From Clostridiales bacterium (GTDB taxonomy: Bacteria; Bacillota; Clostridia; Oscillospirales; CAG-272), in contig DURE01000022.1 in assembly GCA_012837425.1 (NCBI GenBank), forward strand, positions 21,067 to 85,066: DNA of 64,000 bases. Direction: 5' to 3'. Positions 153-21,080 of this stretch are shown piece after piece; positions within the stretch are counted from its first letter, which is position 1; each line of letters begins with the position of its first letter. The notes under the pieces are model-generated. The model had not been told where the DNA came from and ran no database searches. It was given only the letters and a program-made list of their open reading frames with translations. The translations under genes and the position numbers were made by a program.

Positions 153-1508
153 ATGAAAAGCAAAATTCAGCAGGGTAAAAGGCGCCGCGGAACCGGCATT
201 ATTGCCGCCGGTTTTCTGTTGGTCATTCTTGCCGGCGCTGTACTGTTGATGCTGCCGGTCTCCTCAGCCGACCGGAGCTTTACAAATCCGCTCGATGCCG
301 TCTTCACCGCCGTTAGCGCTACCTGCGTCACCGGGCTTGTCACGCTCGACACGGCGACACACTGGAGTCTTTTCGGGCAGATTGTTATTCTTATCATGAT
401 TCAGACCGGCGGGCTCGGGTTTATGACGGTGGCGGTGCTGCTCTCAATGTTGGTCGGGCGGACGGTCACGCCCCGGGAGCGTATGCTGCTCGGGATGTCC
501 TTCAGTCTCGGCAGGTATGAAAAGCTCAGCGATATACTTAACAGAATAGTGGTGGGCACATTCTGTTTCGAGCTGGCAGGCGCGCTGCTGCTCTCGACCA
601 GGTTCATACCCCGCTTCGGATTCCTGGACGGCATATACAAAAGCATCTTTCACTCGGTATCGGCCTTCTGCAACGCGGGTTTTGACCTTTTAGGCGGATA
701 TGACGGTATGTCACAGACCTTCGGGGGAGACCTTGTGGTCTGTGTCACGCTGATGCTGCTTGTTGTGGTCGGCGGCATCGGCTTTGTTGTATGGGACGAC
801 CTTGCCGACAGGATACTGAAAAAAAGGCGGCTGCCGGTCTATTCCCGCCTTGTTCTGATTGTCACCGCGCTACTGCTCGCCGTCGGCACGGCAGCTTTTG
901 CAGCACTTGAATGGCATAACCCCGGGACTATAGGGGGCCTTCCGGCAGGCAAAAAGCTGCTTTTTGCGGCTTTCCAGTCGGTCAATCTTCGCACCGCCGG
1001 ATTTACAATCATAAATCAGGCGCATTTGTCGGAGAGCTCGCAGCTTCTCTCGGTTCTTCTGATGTTCATAGGCGGGGCCTCGGGCTCCCCCGCCGGGGGC
1101 GTCAAGGTGGCGACCGTAGGCGTCCTGTTCTATACAATCTGGTCAGTTTCAATCGGCAATAAAGACGCGGTCCTGTTCGGGCGGAAAATTTCGGCCGAGA
1201 GCTTTACGCGCGCGGTGGCCGTGGTCGGGTTTCAGTCGACACTGATATTTGCCGGGGCTCTTGCTATTCTGGCCTCGAAGGACTGCAGCATCATGGACGC
1301 CGTGTTTGAGGCCACCTCGACTGTCAGCACTACAGGGCTGACACTCGGAATCACGCCGGCGCTCGGCTGGGTGGGCAAGGCCGCGGCAATGCTTATGATG
1401 TACCTCGGACGCGTAGGCATTTTAACCGTGACATACTCGGTTATGTTCAGCCTGCGCGAGAGCCGGTCTACCATAAGCTACCCGGACGCCAATATGCTCA
1501 TAGGCTGA
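153..1508 (+). CDS. ktrB: potassium uptake protein, TrkH/KtrB family membrane subunit
   Basis: 451-aa polytopic ORF with repeated pore-loop-like segments (QTGGLGF, RTAGF, GGASGSPAGGVKV, STTGLT). RBS GGCGAGG lies just upstream. It is followed 30 nt later by an RCK-domain partner. Confidence 0.9.
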   Translation: MKSKIQQGKRRRGTGIIAAGFLLVILAGAVLLMLPVSSADRSFTNPLDAVFTAVSATCVTGLVTLDTATHWSLFGQIVILIMIQTGGLGFMTVAVLLSMLVGRTVTPRERMLLGMSFSLGRYEKLSDILNRIVVGTFCFELAGALLLSTRFIPRFGFLDGIYKSIFHSVSAFCNAGFDLLGGYDGMSQTFGGDLVVCVTLMLLVVVGGIGFVVWDDLADRILKKRRLPVYSRLVLIVTALLLAVGTAAFAALEWHNPGTIGGLPAGKKLLFAAFQSVNLRTAGFTIINQAHLSESSQLLSVLLMFIGGASGSPAGGVKVATVGVLFYTIWSVSIGNKDAVLFGRKISAESFTRAVAVVGFQSTLIFAGALAILASKDCSIMDAVFEATSTVSTTGLTLGITPALGWVGKAAAMLMMYLGRVGILTVTYSVMFSLRESRSTISYPDANMLIG

Positions 1509-1537
1509 TCCGGTAATTTTAATGGGGGAGTAATTAT

Positions 1538-2191
1538 ATGAAAAGCTTTTGCGTCATAGGGCTCGGGAAATTCGGCCAGTCGCTCGCCGAAACTCTTGCC
1601 GGGGCGGGGTGCCAGGTTATGATAATCGACACCGACGCTGACAAGGTCACTGCCATGGCCGACATCGTAACCAACGCGGTCATCGGTGACCCGACCAACG
1701 AGTCAGTGCTCCGCGCGGCCGGAATCAGCGACTACGAGTGCGCCATAGTCTGCCTGACCTCGAATATCAACGCAAATGTGCTGCTCACAATTATACTAAA
1801 GGAGCTCGGGGTAAAAAAGGTGGTCGCGCGCGCGCTCAACGAGGGGCACCGGAAGGTGCTCGAACGCATTGGCGCCGACATGATAGTTTTCCCCGAGCAG
1901 GATATGGGCGAGAAGCTCGGCTATATGCTGACAAGGGACAATGTGACCGACTTTATCGAGTTTTCGGGGTATAAGATAATTGAGCTGGCCGTGCCCGGGG
2001 ACTGGCTGGGCAGGAGTCTGGTCGACCTTGAGCTGCGCCGTAACTTCAGCGTGAACGTCGTGGCGGTGTCGCTTGCCGACGGCAGTGTGGATGTCCCGCC
2101 CCAGCCGACCCGGGTATTTACGCCCGGGGACAAGGTCACGATTATAGGAACCGATAAGGATATTGACAGGCTGATGAAGCAGCTTAAATAA
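1538..2191 (+). CDS. ktrA: potassium uptake regulatory subunit, single-RCK KtrA/TrkA-N type
   Basis: 217 aa with an N-terminal Rossmann motif (VIGLGKFG) and a C-terminal RCK_C-like region. GGGGGAG RBS upstream. Its size fits KtrA rather than the double-RCK TrkA. Confidence 0.88.
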   Translation: MKSFCVIGLGKFGQSLAETLAGAGCQVMIIDTDADKVTAMADIVTNAVIGDPTNESVLRAAGISDYECAIVCLTSNINANVLLTIILKELGVKKVVARALNEGHRKVLERIGADMIVFPEQDMGEKLGYMLTRDNVTDFIEFSGYKIIELAVPGDWLGRSLVDLELRRNFSVNVVAVSLADGSVDVPPQPTRVFTPGDKVTIIGTDKDIDRLMKQLK

Positions 2192-4056: not shown

Positions 4057-4287
4057 TTATTCTGCGATATAGGGCTTAATCGCTTCGAGAAGTCCGTCGG
4101 CATTCCCCGAATGTATTGTCAGAGTTATGGGCGAGAGCAAATCAAGGCTGAAAATACCTATAATTGATTTCGCGTCAACGACATAACGACCCGATGAGAG
4201 GTCGATATCCCCGTCATAAGCGGTTGCTATACCCACAAAATTCTGCACGTCGCGGATTGTAGACAATTGAATCTTTACGCTCTTCAT
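4057..4287 (-). CDS. HPr-family phosphocarrier-like protein lacking the His15 phosphorylation site
   Basis: 76 aa from an internal ATG at 4287, with AAGGAGGA 8 nt upstream. It aligns by eye to HPr: TIRDVQN where HPr has GIHARPA, and DAKSIIGIFSL where HPr has NLKSIMGVMSL. The longer 142-aa track ORF has no RBS. Confidence 0.7.
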   Translation of the reverse strand: MKSVKIQLSTIRDVQNFVGIATAYDGDIDLSSGRYVVDAKSIIGIFSLDLLSPITLTIHSGNADGLLEAIKPYIAE

Positions 4288-4410
4288 CTGTAAATCCTCC
4301 TTCAATGGGCCGGTGTTTTTCAGTCGGCCGGGAAACGGCCGCCCCGCCGGGAACCTTTGCTCAATTATTGTAGCATTATTTTCATGGTTTGTCAATGATT
4401 TAAGACAAGC

Positions 4411-4439
4411 TTGACAAATAAAAACATGTACTCTATAAT
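4411..4439 (+). promoter_or_regulatory. consensus sigma-A promoter for the 4478 ORF
   Basis: TTGACA (4411-4416), exact 17-nt spacer, TATAAT (4434-4439). Confidence 0.7.
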
Positions 4440-4477: not shown

Positions 4478-4882
4478 ATGAGCAAGGGAAAAAGCCGCGA
4501 GGGCCGCCGATACCGGGACGCCGAGCTTGCCTTCAGGCGCTATGCAGGGTACGGGCTTGACCGGCGTCGGCGTGGGCTTGACATGTTTGAGGTCTGCGAC
4601 GCCATACGCGGCCTGTGCAGCGGGCAGAGCGCATATGACATGCTGGCGGTATACGATACCCTGCGGCTGCTTGCGGCCGCAGGGCAGGAAGAGTGCGCCG
4701 AGGCGGTTCGGGCGGTCTACTTTGCCGGCGGCGGGCGCAGGCCGCGGCGCAACGACGTCACCTTCAGAGTAAGGCGGCATGCCTATGAGACGAGCTTTGA
4801 CGAGAGAACAGTCTACCGGCAGCTCCGGCGGGCCAAGGAGATGTACCGGCTACTCAGATACGGCAGCTCCGGCCGGGAATAA
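4478..4882 (+). CDS. hypothetical basic protein with a C-terminal sigma-70 region-4-like HTH
   Basis: 134 aa, Arg-rich. The C-terminal segment SFDERTVYRQLRRAKEMYRLL resembles a sigma region 4 or ArpU-type HTH. A perfect promoter lies about 40 nt upstream. No family was recognised with certainty. Confidence 0.5.
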   Translation: MSKGKSREGRRYRDAELAFRRYAGYGLDRRRRGLDMFEVCDAIRGLCSGQSAYDMLAVYDTLRLLAAAGQEECAEAVRAVYFAGGGRRPRRNDVTFRVRRHAYETSFDERTVYRQLRRAKEMYRLLRYGSSGRE

Positions 4883-5061: not shown

Positions 5062-6459
5062 ATGCTGTTTGCGTCGGCTGCGTTTTTGTTTATATTTCTG
5101 CCGCTGGCGCTGGCACTATACATGCTGGTTTCGGAAAGCATAAAAAAGCATGTGCTCCTTTTGTCCGGCTTGCTTTTTTATGTTTTCGCCAATCTTGCCA
5201 CCCCGCTTACCATACCTATATTTGCGACGGTTTTTCTCATAACCCATTTTGCGGGGGGGTATGTTGCGAAAACCGGCAACCGGGCGCTGACCTTTTGCGT
5301 CGTGTTTTTTGATGTCGCTGCATTTGTTGTGCTGCGGCTGCTCTATGAGTCACAGGAAATAAATTTCAGGTTCCCGCTGGGGGCCGCGATATATCTTTTG
5401 GCCTCGGTGTCGTATATACTCGACATCAGGCGGGGTGACTGCAGCCCCGGACGACCGACAGACACGCTTTTGTATCTCAGCTTTTTCCCGGTAATCGTGG
5501 CCGGGCCGGTGATAAAATACAAGGACTTTGTCAAATATATCGGCGACATAAAAATCAGCATTGCCAATTTCGCCGGCGGGGCACGGCTTTTTATGGCCGG
5601 GTTCATTGAGACGGTTGCGGTGGCGGCGGTGATGGGCGAGGCCTACAAAACCATTGTTGAGCTGAGCGGGCACAGCCTGAATGTGGCCCTCGGAGTGCTC
5701 GCCGCGGTGCTGGCGATGATCTCGGGATTTTTCACGGTAGCCGGCTGGACCGACATAGGCACCGGTATTGCAATGATGTTTGGGATTATGATTCCGCGGG
5801 ACTGCGGGTTTGCCCCCGGAGCATTGACCCCGCTCGGGCATTTTCAGAGGATTCTGCGCGGGCTCCGGGGCTGGCTTGACGATTATATAATCGCCCCTGT
5901 AACACGGGTGACAAGGCTCAGGGGGAAGCCGGCGGAGGCGCTCGGTGTGTTTTTGCAGGTAGTCCTGGTAGCGCTTTGGCTCAGAACCACCTCAGCAATG
6001 CTATATGTTGCGCTGGTTGTGGCGGGTATGGCCGCTCTTTCCCGTGTGACCGGTTATGATGAAGCCATGGGAAAAAAGCGCTACCTCTGGCCGGTCGGCT
6101 GGCTGCTTGCCACCGCGCTTATGTCTGTCTTTTGGACCTCGGCGACACTGTCGGGGGCGGGCGGGCTTTTGGCGATGCTCGGGAAGCTCAGTATAACACA
6201 GGATTTCCGGACCTACTATATCTATATCTCGCTCTCGGGCTGGGAATTCATATCGGTGGCGGCAGCTGCATTCCTTTTGATTGTCCCGGTGTCCTTTTTT
6301 CAGGAGCCGATACTGACGCATACACCGAAAGGGCTCCGGACAAGTATTGAGGCGCTTTTTATGCTGGTGCTGATTTGTGCCTTTGTATTTAGTATTTTGT
6401 ACTTCATGCCGCAGTACCCGGGGTTTGCTGTCCGCATATCCGAGTATTTTGCCTTCTAA
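5062..6459 (+). CDS. MBOAT family membrane O-acyltransferase homologue (AlgI/DltB/PatA-like), with catalytic His positions apparently substituted
   Basis: 465-aa polytopic protein with an N-terminus MLFASAAFLFIFLPLALALY and a block LSFFPVIVAGPVIKYKDF typical of AlgI/DltB. Strong RBS GGGGAGGGGAG. See findings for the His-to-Leu observation. Confidence 0.8.
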   Translation: MLFASAAFLFIFLPLALALYMLVSESIKKHVLLLSGLLFYVFANLATPLTIPIFATVFLITHFAGGYVAKTGNRALTFCVVFFDVAAFVVLRLLYESQEINFRFPLGAAIYLLASVSYILDIRRGDCSPGRPTDTLLYLSFFPVIVAGPVIKYKDFVKYIGDIKISIANFAGGARLFMAGFIETVAVAAVMGEAYKTIVELSGHSLNVALGVLAAVLAMISGFFTVAGWTDIGTGIAMMFGIMIPRDCGFAPGALTPLGHFQRILRGLRGWLDDYIIAPVTRVTRLRGKPAEALGVFLQVVLVALWLRTTSAMLYVALVVAGMAALSRVTGYDEAMGKKRYLWPVGWLLATALMSVFWTSATLSGAGGLLAMLGKLSITQDFRTYYIYISLSGWEFISVAAAAFLLIVPVSFFQEPILTHTPKGLRTSIEALFMLVLICAFVFSILYFMPQYPGFAVRISEYFAF

Positions 6460-6484
6460 AACCTATCAAAAGGAGGGGTGGGAC

Positions 6485-8719
6485 ATGTATAAATCAAAGT
6501 CGGTCGGCGTTGTCTGTGCGACGCTCTTTGTCGGGGTGCTTCTGTCCTGCGCCACCTATTTCGGAATAACCGCTGTCATGCGCCGGGGGGACAGTGACGG
6601 CAGTGCCTCGCGGGCAGAGGGAATATCCTTTGTGCGGTTTTCGGATTCCTTCTACGACAATGAAAACCTTAAAAACTTCATCGGCAGGTGCGAATACCTG
6701 CTCTTCGGCAGTCTGGGCAGCCCCGACATTATACTTGGCAAAAACGGCTTTTTGTTTGACGCGGGAACCGGGGAAAACGGTTACAACTATCTTGAGGACT
6801 ATCTCGGCCTTGGCCAGTTTTATGAGCTTGAGGCGCTTGCAAACACCATAAACATGAGATACCTCGCTTACAAAAATCAGGGGGCTGACTATCTGCTTGT
6901 CGTGATACCGAACGCCCAGACGGTGTACTCTGATTATATGCCCTCCTATATAGGGCCGATAAGCAGCGGCACAAACCTGGGACTTCTCACAGCATACCTC
7001 AAAGACCAGGGATATGACTTTTTCCTCGATGCAAAAGAAGCGCTTGCCGCAGCCCGGCAGAGCGACATGAGGGCGCCGCTCTACAACAACACCGAGAACT
7101 CGCTCAACTCGCTCGGCATTGGTTATCTCTTCGCGGCGGTCTGCGATAAACTCAAAACCCTCTACGGGGTGGAGTGCAGCCATGCCGATGTCAGGGCGAT
7201 GGGGCTGTACACCGGCCTGGCCGACGGCAAGACGCTTGCCCGCAGGGCAGGACTTGGGTCGGTCATCAAAAACAATTCCGTATCGCTCTGGAATAGCGAA
7301 ACCGTCGGGTATTCGAGCGAGAACTATTACGGCAGCATGGTAAAGACCCTGCTTGACAGCAAGTATCTCAGCGAGGCCAATAATAAGACGCTACTGCTCG
7401 AATTTACCGACGAATGGGACAGAATCCAGCTTATGCCCTTCTTTTCCAACACCTTCGGGGAAGTGATATACAAGTCCAACCAGCAGTACAGCAGCATAAT
7501 AGTGAGGAATCTAAAGCCCGACATCGTGGTTCAGTTCGTCCACGAGTATGAGCTGTACGACCTAATCGACCCAAACGTGACCCAGACTTACAATGCGGGG
7601 CTCAGACCCGACATAAAGCCCTATGAAACCTCAAAGCCTATCTGCGTGGCGCAAAGCCGGATTGCCGAGAACAAATTCTGCATCGCCGGGCAGACCGAAA
7701 ACAACGCATATATCACGGTATCGGGTGAAAACATCGGAAGTATCAGCCAGTATGCTGTCGGCAAGCTCTTCTTTATTGAGGTTGACATCGGGGACAGCTC
7801 GACCGAGACCGTGAAAATCACGGCTACTGTCAAGGGGAAAACCCCAAGCGAGCCGGTATATTTGAAACTGAGCCGCAGCAGCGCCACAAAGGCCAGAACC
7901 GTAGCGGTCGGAAAGGATTCGGAGCTGTATTCCTCCGACTACGAATGGTTGAATTTCCTCTCGGACACGCAGCTTGAAGCGCTGCGTGCCGGGCTTGAGC
8001 AGAGGATTAACAAGGCGCGCGAGCTAAGCCGAAGGGACACCGAATTTATATATATGATAGTTCCCGACAAGCTGGCGGTCTACCCTGAAAACGCGCCCGA
8101 CTCGCTTGCCGGAGTGAGGGAGTCGGTTGAGAATTATAAGGCAATGGCAAAGAGCCTGTATGAGAGCGCCGGGGCGACGGCTATCGACCTTACCCAGGAG
8201 CTGCGTGACCGCACCGTGCTTGAGCGGCTTTTCTACCAGACCGACACACTCTGGACCAACTTCGGCGCCTATGTGGGGTACAACTCGCTGGCCAGCAAAA
8301 TTTCAGAGAAATTTGAGAGTGTTAAGGTTTTTAGTCCGAACAGCTTCAGCTACACGCCGAAGGAAACAATCGGCGGCGAGCTGGTCACAAGGCTGGGCAT
8401 CGACGGGGCGGTTATCAGCGAGCCCTATCTTGAAATGAAGCTCAGTCCCGAGTTTTCTGAGGGCGTTCATTACGCCTACAGCGGCGACGGCGGCTTTGAC
8501 ATAAGACGGGCTTTCATTTCCTACGGGGGTGACAGCTCGCTGCCGGTGGCGGTAATAATGCGCGATGCTTTTGGCACCGAGATGCTTGAGAATCTGGCGG
8601 TGCACTTCAGCAAAATGATAGTTCTGGCCGAGGGGCAGTTCAGCGTGGGCGATGAGCTTATTGCCGGGCAGCAGCCCGATTATATTATCACCATCCGCTC
8701 AAACGGCGAGATAGGCTGA
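6485..8719 (+). CDS. membrane-anchored protein with two AlgJ/AlgX/DHHW-like SGNH modules
   Basis: Start chosen at ATG 6485 (RBS AAAGGAGGGG); the track ORF start at 6377 overlaps the MBOAT gene. N-terminal TM helix. Module 1 contains GKNGFLFDAG, LLVVIPNAQTVYSDYMP and LYNNTENSLNSLG. Module 2 contains FIYMIVPDKLAVYPENAP and FYQTDTLWTNFGAYVGY. Confidence 0.65.
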   Translation: MYKSKSVGVVCATLFVGVLLSCATYFGITAVMRRGDSDGSASRAEGISFVRFSDSFYDNENLKNFIGRCEYLLFGSLGSPDIILGKNGFLFDAGTGENGYNYLEDYLGLGQFYELEALANTINMRYLAYKNQGADYLLVVIPNAQTVYSDYMPSYIGPISSGTNLGLLTAYLKDQGYDFFLDAKEALAAARQSDMRAPLYNNTENSLNSLGIGYLFAAVCDKLKTLYGVECSHADVRAMGLYTGLADGKTLARRAGLGSVIKNNSVSLWNSETVGYSSENYYGSMVKTLLDSKYLSEANNKTLLLEFTDEWDRIQLMPFFSNTFGEVIYKSNQQYSSIIVRNLKPDIVVQFVHEYELYDLIDPNVTQTYNAGLRPDIKPYETSKPICVAQSRIAENKFCIAGQTENNAYITVSGENIGSISQYAVGKLFFIEVDIGDSSTETVKITATVKGKTPSEPVYLKLSRSSATKARTVAVGKDSELYSSDYEWLNFLSDTQLEALRAGLEQRINKARELSRRDTEFIYMIVPDKLAVYPENAPDSLAGVRESVENYKAMAKSLYESAGATAIDLTQELRDRTVLERLFYQTDTLWTNFGAYVGYNSLASKISEKFESVKVFSPNSFSYTPKETIGGELVTRLGIDGAVISEPYLEMKLSPEFSEGVHYAYSGDGGFDIRRAFISYGGDSSLPVAVIMRDAFGTEMLENLAVHFSKMIVLAEGQFSVGDELIAGQQPDYIITIRSNGEIG

Positions 8720-8758
8720 AAAAGCAAAAGGGCGGATATAATCCGTCCTTTTTGCTTT
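8720..8758. terminator. bidirectional terminator between the DHHW-like gene and trxA
   Basis: Long imperfect hairpin AAAAGCAAAAGGGCGGAT/ATCCGTCCTTTTTGCTTT with A/T-rich flanks on both sides. Confidence 0.7.
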
Positions 8759-20916: not shown

Positions 20917-21080
20917 CCCATGGGGGTTCTGTGCTCAGACAGGCCGCAAATAATGGATTTTGCAGGGAAGGATGAAGCTGGAATTTTTCGAAACCCGGAA
21001 CATTTACAGGTTTTTGCGCGTCTTATAAAATCAGGATTTGCCGAGCCTTGACAATGAATATTTGAAAGGACGGTCTGACC

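Follow-up and report, generated by a model that had tools for sequence, protein, structure and literature searches.

MBOAT membrane proteins paired with SGNH-like partners are known from PatA/PatB and AlgI/AlgJ/AlgX, which act in Gram-negative peptidoglycan and alginate O-acetylation. In Firmicutes, PatA1/PatB1 (Bacillus cereus secondary cell wall polysaccharide O-acetylation) and CcsH/CcsI (clostridial MBOAT and DHHW proteins) are encoded by adjoining genes, and the partner is a membrane-anchored, extracytoplasmic protein of the circularly permuted SGNH-like type. In the known relay, an acyl group passes from acyl-CoA by His-assisted transfer to a C-terminal Tyr, then to the SGNH Ser, and finally to the polymer. 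It is reported that PatA auto-acetylates the invariant Tyr of its C-terminal FxYxxF motif and that this requires the "universally conserved" His315 (bioRxiv 2024.09.17.613324; JBC PMC12148441). PatA activity depends on both His315 and this Tyr, the His315Ala variant is dead, FxYxxF is common to other bacterial MBOATs, and conserved Arg residues are said to line a putative CoA pocket; the invariant His is said to occur in every MBOAT protein and to be essential in PatA and DltB (bioRxiv 2024.09.17.613324). The PatB1 triad consists of Ser337, His202 and Asp200, with the blocks KDS and TDHHW (PMC9487903). In this study, we analyzed a pair of adjoining genes in a 64,000-nucleotide stretch of contig DURE01000022.1 from a Clostridiales bacterium (positions 21,067 to 85,066; the whole stretch is hereafter called the window). 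The scaffold and gene logic of the pair are those of the known MBOAT-SGNH acyltransferases, and the loss of catalytic features is what differs. The residues of the known relay are lost. The two folds, the membrane topology and the pairing of the genes persist, and purifying selection still acts on them. The pair and its MBOAT-side positions are as follows.

5062..6459, + strand: His-less MBOAT-like membrane protein, 465 amino acids (aa) (open reading frame (ORF) list, profile and model matches)
5854..5856, + strand: codon of Leu265, in the column of the second conserved MBOAT residue (DltB His289; profile alignment)
5980..5982, + strand: codon of Leu307, in the column of the invariant catalytic His (DltB His336, PatA His315; profile alignment)
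6439..6456, + strand: C-terminal hexapeptide SEYFAF, read from the sequence as a relic of FxYxxF, with the Tyr retained and the first Phe changed to Ser
6485..8719, + strand: membrane-anchored tandem AlgX/DHHW-like partner, 744 aa (Pfam ALGX, Foldseek)
8726..8752, + strand: terminator-like hairpin, a 12 bp stem followed by a T-run, directly 3' of the partner

A preliminary description of this locus had called both ORFs intact, with strong ribosome-binding sites and lengths of 465 and 745 aa. All of this held except the length of the partner, which is 744 aa. The ribosome-binding-site-like sequence GGGAGGGGAG lies six bases before the ATG of the MBOAT-like ORF (5062-6459), and AGGAGGGG lies seven bases before ATG 6485 of the partner, whose stop codon is 8717-8719. 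The mechanical ORF of the partner starts at GTG 6377, 36 codons further upstream (6377-6484), and overlaps the 3' end of the MBOAT-like gene. Homologues of the partner start at MYKSK, that is, at ATG 6485, and because of the ribosome-binding site and these homologue N-termini we regard ATG 6485 as the real start. The two genes (5062-6459 and 6485-8719) form a compact operon. A second, canonical MBOAT was looked for in the window and none was found, and there were no polysaccharide synthase genes near the pair.

The preliminary description had likened the pair to an O-acylation module of the AlgI-AlgJ/X, PatA-PatB or DltB type and had proposed comparison with Pfam profiles and solved structures. 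Against the MBOAT-like protein, Pfam MBOAT (PF03062) scored 25.3 bits, just under its gathering threshold of 27, and covered aa 135-244 only; some relatives carry a precomputed PF03062 match. A family profile was needed to reach the solved structures, because the single-sequence search returned only a spurious designed-protein match. The 13-member family profile (HMMER) matched DltB 6bug over residues 8-327 with E 9e-11. The AlphaFold2 (AF2) model, built on 62 relatives, had a predicted local distance difference test score (pLDDT) of 91.8, and its best Foldseek match was DltB (template modelling score 0.61-0.69; for 6bug, E 4.9e-9 and 0.61/0.68), with PORCN and HHAT also found. Judged by this model, the protein has the multi-pass MBOAT fold. 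DltB is thus the closest solved structure and also the best curated sequence model, but the NCBIfam DltB model TIGR04091 gave 40.2 bits against a cut-off of 375, and the window protein differs from DltB in having the two extra C-terminal helices of acetyl-CoA-type MBOATs. No dltA, dltC, dltD, dltX, carrier-protein or ligase families were found among the neighbours scanned or called, the intervening ORFs not all having been scanned. Judged from its sequence, the pair is not of the type of DltB/DltD/DltX/DltC, which act in teichoic acid D-alanylation. Of the three likenesses, those to AlgI-AlgJ/X and PatA-PatB are borne out by profiles and models, while the DltB type is not.

In the HMMER profile alignment, R-W-H289-M-S-L-S-F-W-F-R-D-F of DltB pairs with R-I-L265-R-G-L-R-G-W-L-D-D-Y, and G-F-W-H336-G pairs with A-L-W-L307-R. 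Both His residues of DltB are therefore replaced by Leu, which agreed with an earlier alignment by eye. Column 265 is His in 100% of 76 canonical MBOATs and F, L, M, N or Y in the His-less clade; column 307 is His in 100% of the canonical neighbours and F, I, L, Y or V in the His-less clade. The residue after the lost His (Arg308 in the window protein) is R or K in 55/78 His-less proteins and Gly in canonical ones. Position 247, which is Asn in 100% of the canonical neighbours, is Asp in the window protein and in 60% of the His-less clade. The G-L-x-K-K of canonical MBOATs reads G-F-I-E-T in the window protein (GFIETVA segment). Canonical MBOATs keep this Lys-Lys pair (K 0.89 and 0.99), which presumably binds CoA; in the window subfamily it is Glu-Thr.

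An ordinary acetyltransferase pair, whose His losses are an alignment artefact and in which another His is catalytic, was also considered. The window protein does contain five His residues (30, 62, 204, 260 and 420), and His260, the His in GHFQ that the preliminary description had named as a candidate, lies five residues before Leu265. However, none of the five is conserved. In most relatives the residue at position 260 is Tyr, and in canonical MBOATs it is Phe; His260 is therefore not a substitute catalytic residue. In an alignment of 62 sequences of the His-less group, reaching down to 23% identity, no column is more than 24% His, which rules out a relocated catalytic His, that of GHFQ included. 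Moreover, the HMMER alignments made independently to DltB, AlgJ and PatB1 are consistent among themselves and fit the high-confidence models, and the corresponding partner positions described below (587, 589 and 695) are themselves variable among orthologues. We regard such an artefact as highly improbable.

The Tyr at position -4 is present in 71/72 canonical proteins versus 19/69 His-less proteins. Canonical tails in the comparison set end in ...NPFIYFRF, and several close relatives of the window protein end in F-K-Y-F-x-F. Within the window subfamily the terminal Tyr is replaced by His in P0011, P0012, P0014 and P0083 and by Phe in P0084. The sister-subfamily tails read PFRDIIF, PFWDIAL and PFLNLYI, and the replacements of Tyr among relatives include His, Phe, Asp and Gly. 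The window protein, like PatA, has a Tyr-bearing C-terminal hexapeptide, but Leu has taken the place of the catalytic His, and across the family the Tyr is not maintained.

The partner protein is organized as follows.

6497..6580, + strand: N-terminal transmembrane anchor, predicted helix, aa 5-32, KSVGVVCATLFVGVLLSCATYFGITAVM
6707..7609, + strand: N-type SGNH-like module (N-module), aa about 75-375, with triad equivalents Glu204/Ser206/Glu310 (hhalign of the N- against the C-module)
7085..7108, + strand: NNTENSLN (aa 201-208) in place of block V TD(T/H)HW (alignment)
7406..7420, + strand: TDEWD (aa 308-312) in place of block I GDS/KDS, with Glu310 at the nucleophile position
7622..7879, + strand: immunoglobulin-like (Ig-like) beta-sandwich linker, aa about 380-465, of which 386-463 are predicted as all beta-strand
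7892..8716, + strand: C-terminal AlgJ/PatB1-like module (C-module), aa 470-744, with triad equivalents Asp587/Leu589/Ala695 (AlgJ/PatB1 alignments)
8240..8254, + strand: TDTLW (aa 586-590) in place of TDTHW/TDHHW (alignment)
8561..8575, + strand: RDAFG (aa 693-697) in place of KDSF/GDSF, with Ala695 at the catalytic Ser position (alignment)

Pfam ALGX (PF16822) matched the partner with 73.2 bits (threshold 26.5), and DHHW (PF14286) scored 15.1, below its threshold of 25. The AF2 model (pLDDT 84.6) matched AlgJ, PatB1, the DHHW protein 4nzk and AlgX in Foldseek with E 2e-10 to 1e-7 (PatB1 5v8d, E 1.5e-9; 4nzk, E 2.3e-9), and the modelled partner has the circularly permuted SGNH-like fold. Glu310 lies where strand 299-307 of this model ends and helix 310-321 begins. 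With profiles, the Ig-like linker matched the Bap-like surface protein 7dm0, though weakly. The C-module matched AlgJ 4o8v best, in sequence as well as in fold. In phmmer and profile alignments of this module, RTDTHWT of AlgJ 4o8v and KTDHHWN of PatB1 5v8e stand opposite QTD587-T-L589-WT, and K-D-S-F of PatB1 stands opposite R-D-A695-F. The N-module profile had no sequence match among the solved structures, and so its homology was shown via hhalign to the C-module and via Foldseek. hhalign aligned the two modules with a probability of 99% and E 2e-18, placing N-T-E204-N-S206-L opposite Q-T-D587-T-L589-W. Because of this match, the tandem is a true internal duplication, and the two AlgJ/DHHW-type modules claimed earlier are confirmed. 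With MAFFT, the register for the N-module nucleophile shifts by one, to Trp311, and Ser is absent in either register. As for the block II oxyanion residue (PatB1 DxRY Arg359, or the AlgX block III Tyr), no Arg was aligned by eye in either module, the PatB1 domain-2 alignment being weak (E 24).

The preliminary description had placed TDTLW of the C-module and TENSLN of the N-module at the TD(H/T)HW motif, and had counted four of four His positions as replaced, three by Leu and one by Ser. The AlgJ/PatB1 and hhalign alignments agreed with this (Leu265, Leu307, Leu589 and Ser206), but the count understated the loss, as both nucleophile Ser residues of the partner are also replaced in these alignments. 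All of the PatB1 triad and the KDS and TDHHW blocks are thus replaced, the Asp-x-His...Ser triad of AlgJ/AlgX is absent, and no AlgF-like gene is present. The locus further differs from PatA1/PatB1 in lacking the MBOAT catalytic His and nearby polysaccharide synthase genes, and in having a partner of two modules in tandem with an Ig-like linker. The C-module motif drifts among orthologues, which read TDTLW, TGGIW, TDMML, SNEKL or TGTGL.

In word-indexed searches, 14 close homologues of the MBOAT-like protein and about 60 tandem partners came up, every one intact, and the exhaustive profile search found 20,851 MBOATs. Among the best 160 representatives (clusters at 50% identity) that could be scored at both columns, 78 are without both His, 76 have both and 5 are mixed; the His-less clade therefore comprises at least 78 clusters. 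Further losses of the His-less group are S109, F110, Q221, D225, N247, W261, W264, G281/282, G304, G308, W316 and G317. The structural invariants P14, G107, S117, D121, R124, F142-P143, G148-P149, G173, G180, G228, D231, G235, G241, Y275 and P279 are kept. The group has also gained invariants of its own, namely F441, P450-Q451 ("MPQYP" motif) and the R/K after the lost His.

We calculated the ratio of nonsynonymous to synonymous substitution rates (dN/dS) by the Nei-Gojobori method for the window genes against the orthologues L003, L004, L002 and L006. The values were 0.13-0.27 for the MBOAT-like gene and 0.07-0.16 for the partner; by parts of the partner, they were 0.09-0.14 (N-module), 0.12-0.15 (C-module) and 0.14-0.19 (Ig-like linker). 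The least saturated pair, L003 versus L004 (dS about 0.26-0.30), gave 0.23 (MBOAT-like) and 0.13 (partner). Both genes, the degenerate C-module included, are under purifying selection. Genes decaying on their way to pseudogenes might also score just under the Pfam MBOAT threshold, as the window gene does. However, the ORFs are intact with strong ribosome-binding sites, dN/dS stays within 0.07-0.27, dozens of intact orthologues reach down to 23% identity, and identical copies occur on many independent contigs (P0022 has 16 member sequences on 19 contigs). Decay is hardly credible. The preliminary description had likewise argued that the pattern was not simple decay, and had stated that orthologues with His and relaxed selection in this genome would point the other way; instead, the whole clade is without these residues, as in the 78 of 160 representatives, and each gene and module is constrained.

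The His-less MBOAT and the N-type module adjoin in 30/30 loci with a readable partner gene, across three subfamilies. All were read from GTDB genomes and metagenome contigs and belong to metagenome-assembled genomes (MAGs) of uncultured Clostridia/Eubacteriales, with the guts of animals and humans and anaerobic digesters as sources.

Subfamily (a), window type, L001-L012: tandem partner of about 740 aa; gene order HPr-like (divergent), small134 (a basic 134-aa protein), MBOAT-like, partner
Subfamily (b), L013-L023 and L042-L044: single-module partner of 370-430 aa, matching the N-module profile with E 1e-66 to 1e-94
Subfamily (c): tandem partner in L045/L046, single N-type partner in L047, L050 and L051; DUF2975 and HTH_26 genes upstream in L045 and L046

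In L048 and L049 the contig ends before the partner gene. The universal core is the His-less MBOAT with the N-type module, and the C-module is an accessory of some subfamilies only. About 33-35 of 35 N-type modules (subfamilies (a) and (b) and the tandem members of (c)) carry the N-type signature, which consists of I-P-N-x-Q-T, N-N-T-E-N/D-S-x-N, (E/D)-W-D and F-x-H-E. In the most distant N-type members, Ser206 is Ala, Trp311 is Arg or Met and His353 is Arg or Tyr, and Thr203, Glu204, Asn205, Asn208 and Glu354 are retained. Position 310 is mostly Glu or Asp, with Ser or Asn in some members, and Glu204 is invariant. That Ser206 and His353 form a new catalytic pair in the N-type module was considered and rejected for the clade as a whole, on account of the Ala and Arg/Tyr in the most distant subfamily.

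Profiles and models indicate that this clade is descended from bacterial MBOAT/SGNH polymer O-acyltransferase pairs of the AlgI-AlgJ and PatA1-PatB1 type. The main argument for the ancestral chemistry having been abandoned is that three consecutive stations of the relay, the His, the Tyr and the SGNH Ser, are unconserved. We lean, with modest confidence, towards a pseudo-acyltransferase pair that has been conserved and still binds a ligand in its groove, so that the module was repurposed and not broken. Such a pair would no longer transfer acyl groups. The MBOAT-like protein may serve as a membrane platform, and the groove of the extracytoplasmic N-type module may bind a cell-envelope glycan or a similar ligand through the candidate residues IPN-x-QT, NNTEN-x-x-N, (E/D)W-D and HE/E354, with the Ig-like linker and the degenerate C-module perhaps extending or scaffolding the ligand contact. 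The N-type signature maps to the loops of the PatB1/AlgJ active-site groove (DSSP positions of the model; block definitions of PMC9487903), and in PatB1 these loops carry blocks V and I and a substrate-contacting Lys (PMC9487903). The Asn/Gln/Glu/Trp-rich N-type groove suggests carbohydrate binding. The co-conserved 130-aa basic protein and the HPr-like protein without His15 are probably regulators or cytoplasmic partners.

By analogy with HHATL, the output of the pair would be structural or regulatory (binding, positioning or sensing) and not catalytic. HHATL, the mammalian Hedgehog acyltransferase-like protein, is a His-to-Leu MBOAT viewed as a non-catalytic negative regulator and as the only known exception (PMC5831804). 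The replacement of the invariant His by Leu is the same kind of evolutionary outcome as in the window. However, HHATL is eukaryotic, not closely related and a single protein, whereas here the partner enzyme was inactivated in step, and it is the sole exception in its paper versus at least 78 clusters at 50% identity in the bacterial clade.

Several observations weigh against the pseudo-acyltransferase reading. The window subfamily retains the terminal Tyr (SEYFAF). The C-module of P0072 (L045 2903-5176) retains a full triad (LTDSHLS, HDSYGS), although its adjoining MBOAT (L045 1418-2830) is nonetheless His-less (LWLKT), with the terminal sequence FRYLVL. The acidic residues at the former triad positions (Glu204, Glu/Asp310 and Glu354) would be equally expected for a new catalytic site. 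The linkage of small134 and the HPr-like gene to the pair may in part reflect synteny inherited within a single clostridial lineage, and it is missing from some subfamilies.

A rewired active enzyme, which still modifies an envelope polymer by means of other residues, is possible but doubtful. Its N-type carboxylate site (Glu204, Glu/Asp310, Glu354) might conceivably work as a hydrolase, transferase or metal site, and it is similarly speculative that Asp247, Arg/Lys308 and the terminal Tyr of the MBOAT-like protein move a different donor. The (near-)invariant acidic residues stand exactly at the former Asp, Ser and ER-motif positions, which this explanation would account for, as it would the Arg/Lys for canonical Gly after the lost His in 55/78 proteins, the Asn247 to Asp change in 60% of the clade, the terminal Tyr kept in the window subfamily and the strong purifying selection on both genes. 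A Ruminococcus lineage that keeps the Asp and Ser and has Lys/Arg for the His also suggests that the family tolerates catalytic rewiring. On the other hand, Ser206 and His353 are unconserved in the most distant subfamily, position 310 can be Ser or Asn, the terminal Tyr is gone from most of the clade, and the window subfamily has Glu-Thr for the canonical Lys-Lys. His-independent MBOAT catalysis moreover has no known precedent. The His315Ala variant of PatA is dead (bioRxiv 2024.09.17.613324). The preliminary description had offered a pseudo-enzyme or scaffold pair, or different chemistry, as two options; our data support them as a pair, with the pseudo-enzyme the likelier of the two.

No published description of bacterial His-less MBOAT/AlgX-like pairs was found in a full-text literature search, which was not exhaustive. 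The public records name members of the family "hypothetical", "AlgI" or "AlgX-related alginate O-acetyltransferase". The AlgI and AlgX labels predict an activity that these proteins are unlikely to have, and because the defining catalytic features were looked for and not found, the pair should not be filed as an acetyltransferase. The clade represents a large, selected bacterial group without the supposedly universal His, in which the triad of the SGNH partner was lost in step. It provides a natural experiment on what the MBOAT/SGNH scaffold does besides acyl transfer. We would suggest, with confidence that stays short of even, a new functional class on an acyltransferase scaffold: either a glycan-sensing or glycan-binding module signalling to the 130-aa cytoplasmic protein, or a carboxylate-based enzyme. 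On either view, this would be the first lineage of bacterial MBOATs to work without the "universally conserved" His.

The window neighbours of the pair include the HPr-like gene, small134, a thioredoxin gene and spoIVB. A sporulation link via spoIVB was rejected, as the window and L002 are the only loci with spoIVB near the pair. The upstream features are as follows.

4057..4287, - strand: HPr-like 76-aa protein, divergent from small134 (Pfam PTS-HPr, 24.1 bits)
4367..4439, both strands: divergent promoter-like region between the HPr-like and small134 genes (consensus matches only)
4478..4882, + strand: small134, basic 134-aa protein co-conserved with the pair

On the + strand the promoter-like site is TTGACA-17-TATAAT (12/12 consensus matches, 4411-4439), and on the - strand it is TTGACA-17-TACAAT (11/12, with an upstream TG, 4395-4367). 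The HPr-like protein has lost the GIHARP loop and His15 by a three-residue deletion and keeps the Ser46 motif KSIIGIFSL, compared with a B. subtilis HPr reference sequence. It is about 80% identical across relatives and stands beside the His-less pair in two subfamilies; in subfamily (b), its gene is upstream in L020, L022, L023 and L042-L044.

The small134 family has 254 members, all from Clostridia MAGs and all without a Pfam match. No significant match to small134 was obtained with Pfam, NCBIfam, PHROGs or solved-structure profiles, and its helix-turn-helix (HTH) matches were weak. Its C-terminal part (RVRRLAxExxCDERTVYRxLxxAKxLY) possibly resembles a sigma-region-4 or HTH helix pair. Wherever its surroundings were examined (the window, L001-L012, L018, L020-L023 and L042-L044), small134 stands beside the His-less pair. 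In subfamily (b) it lies directly downstream in L018, L020, L021, L023 and L042-L044 and upstream in L022, and was not detected in L013-L017 or L019; the subfamily (c) loci (L045/L046 and L047-L051) have no small134. It moved from upstream to downstream of the pair between subfamilies, with adjacency kept. In L020 the start of small134 overlaps the stop of the partner (9748 versus 9751), which implies co-translation. The TrkH/TrkA potassium-uptake genes also adjoin the locus, in differing orientations, in both the window lineage and the sister subfamily (window 153-2191; L020 10235-12286; L042-L044). This synteny is unusually persistent, and because these genes travel with the locus, lineage synteny contributes to the conserved neighbourhood.

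These linkages bear on another explanation, a transmembrane sensor in which the pseudo-SGNH modules would detect an envelope or host glycan and the MBOAT-like protein would relay the signal to small134 and/or the HPr-like protein. The persistent adjacency of small134 despite its change of side, the implied co-translation in L020, the weak HTH-family matches and the high conservation of the HPr-like protein without His15 are all consistent with such a sensor. However, no DNA-binding family or solved structure matches small134 significantly, it is missing from some His-less subfamilies, it may simply be the regulator of the operon, and the TrkA/TrkH synteny may explain part of the linkage. We consider the sensor unlikely. 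The His-less MBOAT, the N-type module, small134 and the HPr-like protein make up a testable system of up to four components in abundant uncultured gut and digester Clostridia. In subfamily (b), a surface-type protein of 513-546 aa, absent from the window, is encoded between the HPr-like gene and the His-less MBOAT. It has a signal peptide, a C-terminal transmembrane anchor and a faint Glug match, and is found at the following positions.

L020 5251-6792, - strand: surface-type protein
L042 2229-3836: surface-type protein
L043 1168-2760: surface-type protein
L044 2348-3988: surface-type protein

Degenerate MBOATs were also seen outside this clade. The Ruminococcus spp. loci L025-L037 and L041 (L033 is R. 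flavefaciens) form a separate degenerate lineage. In their MBOAT the first His is still present (RWHIQ), the invariant catalytic His is replaced by Tyr (FWYTF, MWYSF) and the C-terminal FxYxxF is missing. The single-module partner keeps the Asp and Ser (SDT[K/R]W, KDSF), with Lys or Arg for the triad His, and could use a Ser-Lys dyad. As Ruminococcus has cultured species, the degenerate lineage may be experimentally tractable there. Other substitutions in the His columns occur in the otherwise canonical-looking MBOATs P0140, P0141, P0145, P0146, P0163, P0183, P0195, P0199, P0203 and P0209, for example W-N-I-S with W-Y-G and R-W-R-K with W-F-G. This suggests that bacterial MBOATs have lost the catalytic His several times independently. 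Long MBOAT forms of 760-772 aa were observed in P0146, P0164 and P0183.

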